Assembly: GCA_951406725.2 (NCBI GenBank)
Contig: OX597831.1
Location: 70,060,001 to 70,124,000, forward strand
DNA: 64,000 bases
Reading direction: 5' to 3'
From: Octopus vulgaris
Taxonomy: Eukaryota
This document shows positions 1 through 50,400 of the stretch, in pieces. The notes below the pieces were generated by a model. It saw only the letters and a list, made by a program, of their open reading frames with translations, was not told the DNA's origin and made no database searches. Within the stretch, counting starts at the first letter, position 1. Each line of letters opens with the position of its first letter. Position numbers and translations under genes: made by a program.

Positions 1-410
1 TTACATTAATCTTAATTTTATTTGGGCCAGAGTTCTTTCGTCACACTCCTGTGACCGCATCAGGGGTCCTTTGCTTGCTTTCTTCTTTCTTATTTGTGTG
101 TCTCTCCTTACTAACCGTCAACCATTTTGTATTTCTATTGAAATAAGAAAGAAGAAAGCAAAGGACCACTGATGCGGTCACAGGAGTGTGACGAAAGAAC
201 TCCTGGCCGAAATAAGATTAAGTTTAATGTAAAAAATAAATAACACTGAAGCAAAATAACACCAAATATATAGTGCGTGTGTTTTTATTGGTTAAACTGG
301 CAAAATGACCATTCCTAAATACAACAATATCTGTTTCAACACACGATTTCACATAAAAAATCTTGCACAACAAATATATAAACGTTTTCACCATTATTTT
401 GCTTAAAAAG
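1..410. mobile_element. Penelope-like (PLE) pLTR remnant: inverted repeat (arms ~1-94 / ~142-232) with an HHR-like motif in each arm
   Basis: Arms are near reverse complements. The + arm reads GGACCA-CTGATGCG-GTCACA ggag TGTGAC-GAAA-GAAC-TC-CTGGCC. Truncated by the window start. Confidence 0.65.
163..208 (+). ncRNA. Minimal type I hammerhead-like motif (mirror copy on - strand at 24-70)
   Basis: CTGATG core, perfect 6-bp stem II GTCACA/TGTGAC, GAAA, UC cleavage site. A9 is non-canonical. Confidence 0.55.
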
Positions 411-870
411 AAAAATAGTTTGGAATAGATTAATATCTATTCTGTTTACTTCAGGATGGAAGAATATAGTTTGTCATCAGACATATTTAAATTTCATACT
501 TTGTAAATATTAATTTACTTGTGATTTAGTATTCTTCTAATAGAGTAGCAGAGACAGGTGTTAGTCACAGGTAAACTGGTGTCAATCACACTCTGAACAA
601 AAAGTTGGGAAAACTATAAATTTTTTTTTTTTTTTAAGCGCAGAGAAAAGTATTTTTAAAAGAACAGAAAAAATTAGAGTAAATGAATATCATTTTGATA
701 GGATATTCAGACTTTTCTAAAATAGATAATGTTATTGTTGATAATTTCAAATGAAAGAGAAGCAATTTTGCTAGCATTGTGAGTGAAAGGAGATAGTGTT
801 TTGTTACACTTTGTCTGTGTTTGCTGGGTTCAAACTGAAAAGCGAAAAATACACAGAAATACAGAAACTT

Positions 871-1290
871 GTGCAGGAGTGGCTGTGTGGTAAGTAGCTT
901 GCTAACCAACCACATGGTTCCGGGTTCAGTCCCACTGCGTGGCATCTTGGGCAAGTGTCTTCTGCTATAGCCCCGGGCCCACCAATGCCTTGTGAGTGGA
1001 TTTGGTAGACGGAAACTGAAAGAAGCCTGTCATATATATGTATATATATATATGTATGTGTGTGTGTGTGTTTGTGTATCTGTGTTTGTCCCCCTAGCAT
1101 TGCTTGACAACCGATGCTGGTGTGTTTACGTCCCTGTCACTTAGCGGTTCGGCAAAAGAGACCAATAGAATAAGTACTGGGCTTACAAAGAATAAGTCCT
1201 GGGGTCGATTTGCTTGACTAAAGGCGGTGCTCCAGCATGGCCGCAGTCAAATGACTGAAACAAGTAAAAGAGTAAAGAGAGAAAGAGTAA
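871..1290 (+). mobile_element. tRNA-derived SINE, family A, full length
   Basis: Head GCAGGAGTGGCTGTGTGGTAAG..GGTTCAGTCCC, internal (TA)n(TG)n, tail GAAACAAGTAAAAGAG. Near-identical copies at 13351, 19895 and 28265. Confidence 0.9.
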
Positions 1291-1564
1291 ATCCAAAATT
1301 TGAACTTGAAGATTCTGTGTTCTTTTTAGATAAAATAACATCATTAATTTTCACATATATATAACTAGTAACAAGGGAAAAGAAAAAAATTTGAATCCGA
1401 GCAAGACAGACATACTGCCAAAATATTGTTCAGTTCAATAAGCAGAGTCAATCTTTATTCCTCACAAATCAGATTGTACTCCTCTTATTGTGTACTTACT
1501 TTCAGGGAAGAGTTATGCCAATCTTTATAAACTTATTATTATTCACTTAACTGATTTATCAATG

Positions 1565-46176: not shown

Positions 46177-46935
46177 TATATATACATATATATATATCAT
46201 ATACATTCGATCCTTTTTCCAAGAAATCTAATGCTCATAGCTTAGTTTTTCCTTGGGCCTGGCCAGATCGGAGCAATCTCAAGATTAATCAGCCGAAATT
46301 GCGAGGATGATCCGGTTCTTGACTGAAGATTGACCCGTCCGTTTTTTGTATCGTCTATTTGAATGTTTTGCGTTCTTGTACCATTTTGTATTTTTATATA
46401 TATTTTTTATACATATGTATATATATATATATATATCATTAGAAGCAAAATCTGTCTGAGCATGCAGTTGAGAGTGAATAGTTGCTACTGATAATGCACA
46501 AATATGCAGACATCATGTGATCTAGCAATTCCACTGTCACTACTGGCATTTTCGTCTGCTACTGATGCTTCTGTGCATTTTAGCCTCATACATCTATATG
46601 AGATGCTTTCTCAAGACAAATGCTGAAGTATTGTGGCTTTCTTCTAGTATATCCCTGTTAAGCAAGACATACAGGTTGTTATTCTACTTATATACTTCTC
46701 CTATAGAAATGTAATAAGTGATATTTAGTTTCAAAATTTTTACCATTTTCTTCTTGTAAGATAAAAGTAGAAACATGTCCGAGCACATAATTAAAAGTTA
46801 TAATCAGCGCTGTTGAAGAAGCATTTTGTCTATTGTTTATCATTTGAATATTGCAATTAGCAGAGTTAGTGTGGAATTAAATCTCTGATTTTAAAATAGC
46901 TGACAGGCTGATTACTTACTCTTGGCGTATGGCAG

Positions 46936-47488
46936 GATAAACTTGTTTTATTTTCAATATAAGTATATATCGTAAACTAAGCACAACTGAATTAGATTTA
47001 CACTGAAGGATTTATATATTGATGGCACCGGTTGGTATCAACATATTTGTTTTTAATTAAATTAGATATTTCACAGAAGACTCATTCTAACCATCTACAA
47101 ACACTGTAGAATCGCGGTTTCGATTCCCAGACCGGGCGTTGTGAGTGTTTATTGAGTGAAAACACTTAAAGCTCCATGAGGCTCCGGCAGGGGGTGGTGG
47201 CAATCCCTGCTGTACTCTTTCACCACAGCTTTCTCTCTTTCTTCTGTTGGTCTGCTCGCTTAGCCAGCGGGGTGGAGTCATTTGAAGGCTAAAACAATGC
47301 AAAGCGCATTGTGACCAGTGATAAACTTGTTTTATTTTCAATATAAGTATATATCGTAAACTAAGCACGACTGAACTAAATTTACACTGAAAGATTTATA
47401 TATTGATGGCACTGGTTGGTATCAATATATTAGTTTTTAATTAAATTAAATATTTCACAGAAGACTCATTTTAACCATGTACAAACAC
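46936..47488 (+). repeat. 169-bp direct repeat (46936-47104, 47320-47488) flanking a truncated family D SINE (47109-47320)
   Basis: Colinear repeats with scattered substitutions. Confidence 0.9.
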
Positions 47489-50400
47489 ATATATTTCTTA
47501 ATGTGTCAAAATTTCTTTCACACTACTGCAACCTAATCAACCAACAAGGTTGTACAACTGCAATCTTGTTAGTACGTAGGCAGCAACCGTGCAACAAAAA
47601 TTTTCACTCACCAAGAAATAAATGTAAAGTGAATTTAACAGTTTTAATGTGATTTTTAAATAGCTGAAATTATTCTTCCAAGATTTACTTGATTCAGTTT
47701 TAACAAATCATTTTAGTTCAAATCACTGTTGCTCAATATATAGATTTCCAATTAAATGCTGTTTTAGTTACTCTAATTTTGATAATCCATATTCTATGTT
47801 ATAATATAAAATAATTCAAAATGTTTTGCACCCTTTCTGGATTTTAAACTTTTTTAAAAAATACTAACATTATTTACAAATTGCTAAAACATTCTTATTA
47901 TTTGCAGTATGTTATTCATCTAAGTAAGCTGAGGTGATGACCTTGTAAATACTTTTGTGCTTTTATATGAAACACCTAATATATATCAGAAGTATTGGGC
48001 TTGAAAAAGCAGTGAATCAACAGAGTTGTCAGAATAAACAATACAAAGTGATGTATCTCGCATTTACTAGATATATATCTGAGTTTTTACACTTTCAGCT
48101 CACATCTTGTCACATTTGACTTGTGCTTTCATCTCTTCAGAGTTGATAAAAACATTAAACCAGGGCAGTAGATTGCTGAAATATCAGATGGAATGTTACA
48201 TGGTATTTTTCTGAACATTTTGCATTGCCATGGTGACTTTTGACAGCACCACTGGTGCCAAGCCATGCCAGTTATGGCTTTTCTATAGACTACATTAGCA
48301 GCAAGTGAGGAGAAAATTACCACAGTTCCCTTTTGCGAGGAGAGGGACAACTCTCTCCCAACAACGGAAAGTTCAAGTCTTCCATAGAATCTTTGCCCGA
48401 GTCAGCACCTTGGAAAACAAAATTTTCTAGGTGCAAATATTTAGATCATCTTTAGCAGACCACAAATGCCGTTAACTCAATTTATAGAAAAATTTGTTTT
48501 CAAAGCAAACAAAATACTAAAATGCTTAACGAAATACTTAACAGTATTTCATCTGTCTTCATGTTCTGAGTTGAAATGCTATCAGGGTCATCTTTACTTT
48601 TCATCCTCTTGGAATTAACAAAATAAGTACCAGTTGCACAATGGGGTTGATATAATCGAATATACCCCTCCCCCAAATGTCAGGCCTTGTGGCTATAGTA
48701 GAAAGGATTATTATCCATCACACACACACACACACACACACACTCTCTCTCTCTCTCTCTCTCTCTCTCTCTCTCCCCACCTTCTCACCCAAATCAACAA
48801 ATTCTTTTTCTCCCAAAAATGCTCCTATTTTCTTCTCCCAATTATCCTCGTTTTTCTTCTGTCATCACATGCTATGTGACTGCAGTGCTAGCATATGCCA
48901 CTTTTGACAAGAAAATCTAGCTTTTTTGGATGTGATTCTAAAATGTTGTAGCAGTTCTAGGAACTCCAAGAGAAATGATTTTACCTTAATGATAGTTTGT
49001 ATAGTAAACTCTTAAAGTTCTTCATAAAGACAAACTACCATTCAAATATATTTGTCATGTATTTCCAACTGTAATTGAAGTAAAATTACAAGTTGATATT
49101 TCAGCTGGCTTACAGATTAAAGGCCTAATGGAATATGACAAGAATATCGTGTATGAAGTTAAATAATGGAAAATAAGCATTTAAACCTGCTATTCAAAAC
49201 ATTTTTGGAAGGTGTGATAGCTCCAGATTGCAAGCAGCTGAATGAAAAAAATGTCTGATATTTTTCATTATTTTATACACTTGCTTCCCAACCACATGGT
49301 TCCAGGTTCAGTCCCAGTGTGCAGCACCTTGATTATGTGTCTTCTACTATAGCCTCAGGCTGACCGAAGCTTTTTGAGTAGATTTTATCCGACATTAAAT
49401 ATAAATTTAAGTGTTTACTTCCGGACTCTCTCACTCTGTGAGAACCTCAGTTCAAATTGCACGTGTCTTGAATGGGCTGGAGTATTTCTATTTTGGATGT
49501 ATTTGGGGTACTTAGTTGTGCTCATGACTTAGTATTTTGCTTCTTCCTTGGGTATGAGTAAGTATTTCATTTATTTCTTTGCCACATGTATCACTGACGA
49601 AGGGAGGGTTCTTATGAACTAACCCTGAAATCGGTCCAATATGGTAATAATGGAATTTTTTAGAAATTTCTGTCGGCTTTTTTTTCGAGTAGCGTGTGTA
49701 TTGTGAAAAATTATATGGTAATGGACAATATGTCCAATTTTTCGGCATATTTGGAATTAGAAATTTTTTCGTTTGCCCTTATTTATAAGTTGTTTATAAT
49801 TTTAACCGTTAAAGGTATTTTTTAATATGCTGGCCATTGATAAAATTTTTTTCTTTCAAAAAATTTTATCCTACATTAAATATATATATATGTATGTATA
49901 AATCTATAAACATATATAAATCTCTCTCTCTCTCTCTCTCTCTCTCTATATATATATATATATATATATATATATATAAATATATATATATATATACATA
50001 TATATATATATATATATAAATATATAAATATATATAAATATATATATACATATACATATATATATACATATATATACACACACACAAAATTTAGAGGACT
50101 GACCATATATATATACATACAGATATATATGTATGTATGTATGTATGTATGTATAAATCTCTCTATATATGTATGTATATGTAAATATATGTGTGAAATT
50201 TGACTGATGATGACTGCTGCTGTCATCATGTGATTGTTTTTAAAGAGACATAGAGAAAAATAGGGTCTGCTAAGAAATAAAGGTGAGGGAGAAATTATAT
50301 ACATGTGTATGTATGCATATATATATTATAAACATAATCACCACCCAACAAAATAAAAACAAGCCACCCAGCACTTGTTGTACATCATCATCATCATCGT

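Follow-up and report, generated by a model that had tools for sequence, protein, structure and literature searches.

Hammerhead-type motifs and 3′ ends of Penelope-like elements in a microsatellite-rich window of the Octopus vulgaris genome

Hammerhead-bearing insertions in the window

The DNA analyzed here is a stretch of 64,000 nt of the Octopus vulgaris genome (G000:C18:70060001-70124000; hereafter the window), taken from assembly G000, which comprises 2.80 Gb in 227 contigs. The window is rich in microsatellites, has a GC content of 36%, and carries many insertions with folds of the type I hammerhead ribozyme (HHR). A preliminary description had named 20 such sites (18 as full motifs and two as partial ones). 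All 20 have the HHR arrangement in whole, decayed, or truncated form, and the order of stem I, core, stem II, GAAA-like box, short stem III, UH, and stem I′ can be followed, whole or decayed, at every one of them. These minimal type I folds very probably belong to the 3′ terminal repeats of several families of Penelope-like elements (PLEs), of which the window holds copies that are 5′-truncated, in many cases inverted, and for the most part adjacent to (TA)n tracts. With them lie a few units that lack an open reading frame (ORF) and were likely copied in trans.

Most of the motifs listed as pairs are two arms of one insertion. Self-comparison identified 24/163, 10341/11140, 23355/23983, 24391/24668, and 31062/31278 as inverted arms of single insertions, and 12144/12507 as tandem arms of one insertion. 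The 18 full motifs thus represent about 12 insertions in nine families. The presence of many families was correctly noted in the preliminary description, which counted about eight.

At the left edge of the window, a family A foldback (1–385) carries motifs at 63 (minus strand) and 169 (plus strand), with an A9C core change and the stem III G-AA-C. This is the 3′ end of a PLE; its left arm leaves the window and its right end is approximate. A family B foldback follows at 10260–11230 (ends approximate), with a decayed motif at 10372 (minus) and another at 11144 (plus). Its arms flank a low-complexity, CCACA-rich 3′ untranslated region (UTR), and it represents the 3′ end of a Neptune-like PLE that is old and decayed. 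Families B, C, and D are stacked in one TA-rich stretch (11560–12787). Here, an extra truncated family B motif (11560–11596, plus strand, core at 11575) stops where family C begins. Family C is present as a 3′ end (11597–11960, plus strand, ends approximate) with its core at 11762, a long stem II, and the family stem III CACGTG. Family D (11974–12752, minus strand) consists of one ORF-less unit of 363 nt and a partial tandem unit, with motifs at 12179 and 12542, a U3-A8 core, the stem III CGCG, and an inverted 5′-truncated arm that reaches a TA tract; its organization is retrozyme-like.

Families H, E, F, and G are stacked in another TA-rich stretch (23097–25188). The first is a short family H foldback with TA tracts on either side (23115–23296, minus strand; core at 23185, stem III CTCAGAG), followed by a family E foldback (23309–24114; cores at 23434 minus and 23989 plus) with a U4C change, a long stem II, and the stem III CATATG. 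A family F foldback lies between TA tracts (24338–24796; cores at 24425 minus and 24671 plus; U3-A8, stem III CCGG), and a family G copy of about 205 nt has TA on both sides (24834–25041, minus strand; core at 24967, stem III CG). The stacking of families suggests repeated targeting of the same microsatellite.

A second family H foldback (30954–31350; decayed, with cores at 31095 minus and 31281 plus) is interrupted by a dispersed repeat at 31125–31272. The family L copy (32784–33121, plus strand) is 5′-truncated within the core, which corresponds to the partial site at 32868, and has an inverted arm; another candidate HHR of this family near 32970 was rejected because genomic copies place the HHR at 32868. 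A family I copy lies between TA tracts (42430–42864, plus strand) with a decayed core near 42673, and a second family G copy (45180–45381, minus strand; core at 45306) has decayed stems. The foldback at 45697–45906 has only the 3′ half of an HHR (the partial site at 45788), and the search did not retrieve the family to which it belongs; decayed single sites such as this one may be classified as HHRs by analogy only. A family B copy (45985–46185, plus strand, start approximate; core at 46058, A6U) reaches a TA tract. Two further motifs, at 11575 and 49594, had been overlooked. The latter belongs to family J (49380–49880, plus strand, ends approximate), which lies outside the range covered by the preliminary description and combines a canonical core with a decayed 9-nt stem III; relatives of this family are present at other loci.

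Motif quality in the window is uneven. In the descriptor scan, three motifs have no core mismatch and seven have at most one, and the others are decayed or bear core changes that are fixed in their families. To satisfy the strict descriptor, a sequence needs the core with either C3-G8 or U3-A8, stem II and GAAA, a stem III that pairs, UH, and a stem I with three Watson-Crick pairs; a narrower earlier version recovered two motifs in the window. Block-wise dinucleotide shuffles of the window contain on average 0.0 strict motifs and 0.4–0.47 one-mismatch motifs (maximum 2). Since the descriptor was tuned on a window that had already been seen, a blind sample of G000 (60 stretches of 10 kb, 600 kb in total) provides the fair test. 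The blind sample contains 17 strict and 26 relaxed motifs, whereas its four shuffles contain 0, 0, 0, and 0 strict and 3, 6, 3, and 1 relaxed ones. Extrapolation to the genome gives about 79,000 strict motifs (95% range 46,000–127,000). Compared with the blind sample, the window has three strict motifs against 1.8 expected (P = 0.27) and seven relaxed motifs against 2.8 expected (P = 0.02, for a window picked post hoc). The window is therefore no special cluster and at most modestly richer than the genome average.

About 3 of the 26 relaxed matches per 600 kb are what chance would produce with so short and relaxed a motif in repetitive, AT-rich DNA, and it is also true that only three window motifs pass the strict descriptor and that the best Rfam score is far below its cut-off. 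For the set as a whole, this explanation is refuted by the absence of strict motifs from all shuffles against 17 in the blind sequence. The palindromy of stem III goes beyond what the descriptor demands, and the motifs hold a constant position at element ends; the probability left to chance is negligible.

No hammerhead is present among the 150 of 219 Rfam matches listed for the window, and none was reported for 12100–12600. The two family F motifs match the Rfam family HH9 with 22.9 bits, under its cut-off of 52. Tens of thousands of ribozyme-like motifs in this genome are invisible to Rfam, and none of the ribozymes reaches the Rfam gathering score. That standard repeat annotation would miss the elements, as the preliminary description held, is unlikely in this form. 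G000 was searched with ten stretches and one protein, and the first look gave 44 to 3586 candidate matches per family. Moreover, a 2026 octopus repeat annotation reports 31 recently active Penelope-like families (PMC13282606); in a word search, the words ribozyme and hammerhead do not occur in the available portion of that article.

Protein-coding and ORF-less families

Elsewhere in G000, longer copies of families A, B, C, E, and F continue into an ORF for a reverse transcriptase (RT) and/or a GIY-YIG endonuclease (EN), which indicates that the window copies are 5′-truncated ends of protein-coding PLEs. 

The family F copy in the window is 97–99% identical to the 3′ end of a two-ORF Neptune-like PLE. 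Full-length elements, such as the one at locus L091, have an upstream ORF followed by ORF2 with RT and GIY-YIG domains in a unit of about 4.4 kb. L091 (ORFs at 4048–5358 and 1823–4108 of the locus, minus strand) has an HHR at both unit ends, an inverted truncated arm, and a TA flank, and its 3′ end is 98.9% identical to window positions 24549–24832 over 284 nt. Its ORF2 matches the Pfam domain RVT_1 above the cut-off (E = 3e-8) and GIY-YIG below the curated cut-off (E = 0.005). By inspection, the F protein (P0001) has DKG, a CX4CxxC linker, and CCHH-type residues. Among the 59 ORF2 matches scored, 53 have no internal stop, and sequence identities are 98–100%, indicating that family F is very young. 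The HHR lies 0.7–0.85 kb after ORF2 in 29 of the 30 F loci, and a second HHR is found 4.4 kb upstream in 10 of the 30, which hold the HHR upstream of ORF1 as well as after ORF2, as in a partial tandem (pseudo-long terminal repeat, pLTR).

The upstream ORF of family F (417–446 codons) has no Pfam match and overlaps ORF2 across a conserved T6 run followed by A. This overlap was found 32 times in 30 F loci (L316–L345). The overlap looks like a programmed frameshift site, and no strong hairpin is predicted downstream of it; a frameshifted ORF1 in PLEs is mentioned in the legend of Fig. 1 of Craig et al. (2021, PMC8557442). None of the 120 homologs listed for the F protein carries a clade name. Close homologs (P0035, P0048, P0077, P0083, P0089, and P0099) are filed under bacterial gill symbionts, and these probably represent host DNA in symbiont assemblies.

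The family E foldback in the window shares 97–98% identity with the 3′ end of a PLE of the Hydra-like type, and its center encodes the last 28 amino acids of a PLE endonuclease (96% identity to P0002). The statement that the insertions lack a recognizable ORF is therefore nearly true in the window but fails at 23309–24114. The E endonuclease (P0002) has CxxC and CxH around conserved E and N residues, without CCHH, and its linker has no cysteines. The RT of this family is weak in Pfam and the endonuclease was recognized by motif only; an ORF lies about 210 nt upstream of the motif in 18 of the 29 motif rows. For family C, one insertion (L309) has an endonuclease ORF with a CxCX5C linker, in which the EN domain only was identified. 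The N-terminal parts of the E and C proteins, with the diagnostic RWK and DKT motifs of the Hydra clade, were not recovered. Family A has ORFs in L125, L119, and L109 with a CX4CxxC linker and GIY-YIG; the RT and GIY-YIG matches are both weak in Pfam. These ORFs are of a third type, with 29% identity to F over 177 amino acids, and family A may be Nematis-like. Finally, family B was reached through its 3′ UTR. Decayed RT/EN sequences lie upstream in at least 10 of the 30 loci selected by this 3′ UTR (tblastn), and the decayed copies keep the linker and the EN cysteines and histidines.

Families D and L have a different organization. Family D repeats at 359–364 nt in four of the six spacings available, and the family L unit is an ORF-less tandem of 337 nt with the stem III CATGCATG. 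Neither family extends into an ORF of its own; a PLE ORF lies upstream in one of the 33 D rows, and that ORF is a fragment of family E. Inverted arms are present in both families and many copies adjoin TA tracts. When folded as circles and compared with shuffles, D and L have z-scores of −9.1 and −5.6, respectively, the latter helped by an internal TA run, whereas the linear controls (the F end, the E end, a dispersed repeat, and G) fold at −1.0, −2.8, −0.1, and 0.0. The D and L HHRs look minimal, and stem I of D continues into a long predicted rod. In their arrangement, D and L are tandem units resembling retrozymes. Part of the D unit was found in 19 of 24 sequencing runs, all as contigs and none recorded as RNA. 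The internal (TA)n run of the 337-nt L unit (L353, L357, and L364) is like the target of the family itself.

For family G, no shared unique upstream sequence is present in 30 loci and no upstream ORF in 17 motif rows. This family may descend from a longer master with an internal TA run, and family B has a related HHR. Family H occurs as short foldbacks in which no ORF was seen, and no ORF was found for family I.

These patterns bear on the proposal of the preliminary description that the ribozyme-carrying retroelements are, throughout the set, non-autonomous and non-coding. No copy in the window has a whole ORF, and the ORF-less tandem units of D and L and the lack of shared upstream sequence in G agree with this proposal. 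The non-autonomous reading fits D and L, and probably G and H. It is refuted for A, B, C, E, and F, which extend into RT/GIY-YIG ORFs and have staggered 5′ ends, and the coding sequence inside the E copy of the window also counts against an entirely non-coding set. As an account of all families together, the proposal is improbable.

Insertion sites, ribozyme cores, and predicted cleavage

The link to TA microsatellites drawn in the preliminary description is supported. Of the 20 sites, 17 have a (TA)5 or longer tract no more than 400 nt away on one or both sides, the exceptions being both family A motifs and 12144. Among the strict motifs of the blind sample, 8 of 17 have such a tract within 200 nt downstream, compared with a background of 15% (P of about 0.002). 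Furthermore, TA directly follows the 3′ end of the insertions in 33 of 42 cases for F, 26 of 45 for E, 41 of 60 for B, 37 of 40 for G, 30 of 32 for H, 14 of 30 for C, 20 of 24 for I, and 21 of 66 for D, against a background of 5.8%; many of the D, E, and F ends in this count lie inside tandems, and family A is left out due to a deletion in its reference copy. The 3′ ends are fixed, at 39–175 nt beyond the predicted cleavage site, and the 5′ ends are staggered. Family F has a second class of 3′ ends that is about 35 nt shorter, with ends at +60 and +95.

An HHR on the opposite strand is found within loci of several families (D, 11 of 30; H, 15 of 30; A, 7 of 30; C, 6 of 25; I, 5 of 25; G, 5 of 30; L, 3 of 20; and B, 2 of 30). 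The long, near-perfect inverted arms (97% identity over 812 nt at 23309–24114) and the TA flanks are also features that would be expected of foldback or MITE-like (miniature inverted-repeat transposable element) DNA transposons, in which the HHR likeness would be incidental. However, arm lengths and junctions vary from copy to copy while the 3′ end stays constant, and the linked ORFs encode RT and GIY-YIG proteins and no transposase. In addition, inverted 5′-truncated arms are a described trait of PLEs (Craig et al., 2021, PMC8557442; this and other statements on that source refer to its available portion). An origin from DNA transposons is therefore very unlikely. The hallmarks of endonuclease-positive (EN+) PLEs, namely 5′ truncation, an inverted 5′-truncated arm, and a tail at one end, are all present.

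In the family H loci (L158–L187), 28 of the 69 aligned pieces start 31–50 nt upstream of the cleavage site, close to where stem I begins. This hints that stem I favors the template switch that makes foldbacks, although the query design may inflate the signal.

Based on published work on PLEs and HHRs, a mechanism can be proposed for the PLE-derived insertions. The GIY-YIG endonuclease would nick (TA)n DNA, and the RT would copy the element RNA from the nick; early stops or template switches would account for the truncated copies and the foldbacks. Two HHRs of a tandem transcript would pair by means of the palindromic stem III and undergo slow cleavage as a dimer, which would release unit-length RNA. 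The ORF-less units would likely be copied in trans by the PLE enzymes. As the insertions span the cleavage site and have intact HHRs, the RT would have copied either a tandem RNA that had not been cut or a circle formed by re-ligation, rather than a cut linear monomer.

The HHR cores differ among families. All 30 D loci and all 30 F loci have the U3-A8 core. U4C is present in all 30 E loci, most I copies, and 13 of the 30 H loci, A9C in 29 of the 30 A loci, and A6U in all 30 B loci as well as in all four B copies of the blind sample. Families C, D, F, G, L, and J and 16 of the 30 H loci have a canonical or U3-A8 core. U4C creates a CpG in the core (families E, H, I, and L), so some of the canonical-looking cores in old copies may have arisen from a U4C master by deamination, or the change may have run in the opposite direction.

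Across families, stems I and II are paired and stem III is short and palindromic, except that stem III of family A is non-palindromic. With a descriptor that also allows U4C, 34 motif groups were found in 1.45 Mb of loci. The central dinucleotide of stem III, which this descriptor leaves free, is Watson-Crick paired in 17 of the 23 groups with an even-length stem, compared with about 27% expected, the groups being partly interdependent. Stem covariation, which the preliminary description had put forward as a test, is present in part. Among six E-type relatives, 89.7% of the pair cells are kept, whereas 36–53% are paired when the pairing is slid; four pairs changed on both sides, and the covariation score was reached by 2 of 500 shuffles in a control that ignores relatedness. 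When two copies of the RNA are folded together, RNAcofold predicts an intermolecular stem III with an intact stem II in families D, E, and F, and the prediction for H comes close to this. Self-cleavage of these motifs, as dimers, is a prediction from folding.

Several observations weigh against the interpretation of these insertions as ends of HHR-bearing PLEs with trans-copied units, particularly where cleavage is concerned. No excess of 5′ ends was found at the predicted cleavage site in nine families, so the DNA bears no footprint of cleavage; the loci were mostly selected by their HHR, which weakens this test. The fixed A9C, A6U, and U4C changes are expected to slow cleavage, and the optimum of the cofold for A, C, and G differs from the dimeric HHR. 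The comparison of D with a sister subfamily is mixed, with five pairs kept and five broken over 19 shared substitutions; the base of stem II is among the two kept pairs that have changes on both sides, and these substitutions weakly support selection on the whole fold. No autonomous partner that shares termini with D, L, G, or H was found. The loci obtained by similarity searches are top hits and lean toward the subfamilies of the window itself. Finally, the clade names (Neptune-like for F and B, Hydra-like for C and E) are assigned from motifs rather than from a tree.

It is possible, though less likely than not by a clear distance, that the elements are as identified here and the HHR fold is mainly non-cleaving, either as a relic or as a structure recognized by the RT or EN, with retrotransposition from uncut transcripts. 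The amplification of families with A6U, A9C, or U4C cores and the lack of a 5′-end peak at the cleavage site would agree with this. Moreover, minimal HHRs have been reported to show low activity as dimers (Cervera and de la Pena, 2014, PMC4209133, in the available portion of the article, as in all statements on that source), and Naiads, which lack an HHR, spread well (PMC8557442). Against this reading, the core persists in the 34 motif groups while all four Watson-Crick combinations occur at positions 1 and 2 of stem I (pairing being required by the descriptor), and the two youngest families have the swap between C3-G8 and U3-A8. The palindromic stem III fits selection for dimer cleavage, and U4C in a viroid is tolerated in vivo, with slower cleavage in vitro (PMC3088659).

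Relation to known elements and other features of the window

The association of minimal type I HHRs having a palindromic stem III with PLEs, on which the preliminary description relied, agrees with the literature. In the pLTRs of metazoan PLEs, minimal HHRs fall into many families, and Cervera and de la Pena (2014, PMC4209133) describe U3-A8 variants, opposite-strand pairs, and truncated copies that occur singly. The octopus motifs share with these the minimal type I fold, the palindromic stem III, an extra nucleotide before stem II, the U3-A8 variant, the many families per genome, the predominance of solo truncated copies, and opposite-strand pairs 100–700 bp apart. They differ in host, which the available portion of that article does not mention, in number (an estimated 80,000 or so strict motifs, compared with 2,000–9,000), in forms with a long stem II (55–70 nt), and in the family-fixed changes U4C, A6U, and A9C, which do not appear in that portion.

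Partial tandems, inverted arms, tails, and (TA)n targeting of PLEs have also been described (Craig et al., 2021, PMC8557442). Families F and B are like Neptune in that source in having an RT, a CX2-5CxxC linker, a GIY-YIG domain with CCHH-type residues, a bias to microsatellites, partial tandems, an inverted arm, and a tail of about 35 nt at one end, and the upstream ORF of F that overlaps ORF2 may be a difference from Neptune as described there. Family C resembles the Hydra clade in its CxCX5C linker and TA-rich sites. Family E resembles this clade in having CxxC and CxH around E and N, no CCHH, and TA-rich sites, but its cysteine-free linker lacks CxCX5C.

Mobilization of retrozymes by PLEs has been proposed (Cervera and de la Pena, 2020, PMC7229834; Li, Clavereau and Pollet, preprint 10.64898/2026.07.22.740005; both cited from their available portions), and the words octopus and cephalopod are absent from both texts. 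Families D and L are like the non-LTR retrozymes of these sources in being ORF-less tandem units of 337–364 nt, each of which bears a single type I HHR and is predicted to fold stably as a circle. They are unlike them in having minimal HHRs of the PLE type, in being known here as DNA, and in occurring as dispersed partial tandems that are short, have inverted arms, and lie at TA targets, whereas non-LTR retrozymes form long arrays.

Among cephalopods, 235 Rfam hammerhead hits are reported for the giant squid genome (PMC6962438). The literature searched contains no HHR survey of an octopus; the supplementary files of PMC4209133 and PMC8557442 may include HHRs from cephalopods or the families described here. 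Earlier publications already report minimal HHRs at the ends of PLEs, cores of the U3-A8 type, pairs on opposite strands, and the targeting of (TA)n. The fixed core changes U4C, A6U, and A9C in amplified families are new, although Lunse et al. (RNA Biol 14:1499) may already describe some of them. The octopus families are new members of a known arrangement in a new host, with useful natural variants. As the arrangement is known, it is no surprise, and its value lies in the material. The role of the hammerheads of PLEs is stated to be unclear (PMC8557442), and in this genome an element that is young and intact stands alongside passengers without an ORF and natural variants of the core, which makes this role and the mobilization of animal retrozymes testable.

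A more far-reaching and quite tentative proposal, to which we would assign a low probability, is that the octopus harbors a living PLE-retrozyme system. An active Neptune-like element would coexist with ORF-less circular RNAs of 337–363 nt that have dimer-only ribozymes and leave the integration scars of PLEs (TA targets, inverted arms, and tails), beside successful families whose HHRs have damaged cores (A6U and A9C). If true, this would mean that PLEs mobilize retrozymes and that a hammerhead fold can persist as a recognition signal after cleavage has been lost.

Several other features of the window are worth recording. A repeat is present in two copies of opposite orientation (42895–43290 and 45385–45690) with a palindrome like that of stem III; no HHR core was found in it and no more copies among the loci examined. 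Further foldbacks in which no HHR was detected lie at 9369–9705, 13780–13909, and 32379–32576, and one of them consists of two head-to-head copies of a common dispersed repeat around a TA tract. Such hairpins, like the PLE foldbacks, attract spurious Rfam microRNA hits, and the microRNA hits in the window were rejected as artifacts of foldbacks and microsatellites. A scan of 102 open frames (100 of the 125 candidates and two frames of a long interspersed nuclear element, LINE) identified no host exon, and the Pfam matches among them are a transposase and a LINE RT only. The LINE is 5′-truncated (43337–45170), encodes an RT and a PHD-type finger, starts at a TA tract, and ends in (GAT)n. The transposase match is a DDE_Tnp_1_7 (piggyBac/IS4-type) fragment at 61497–61931.

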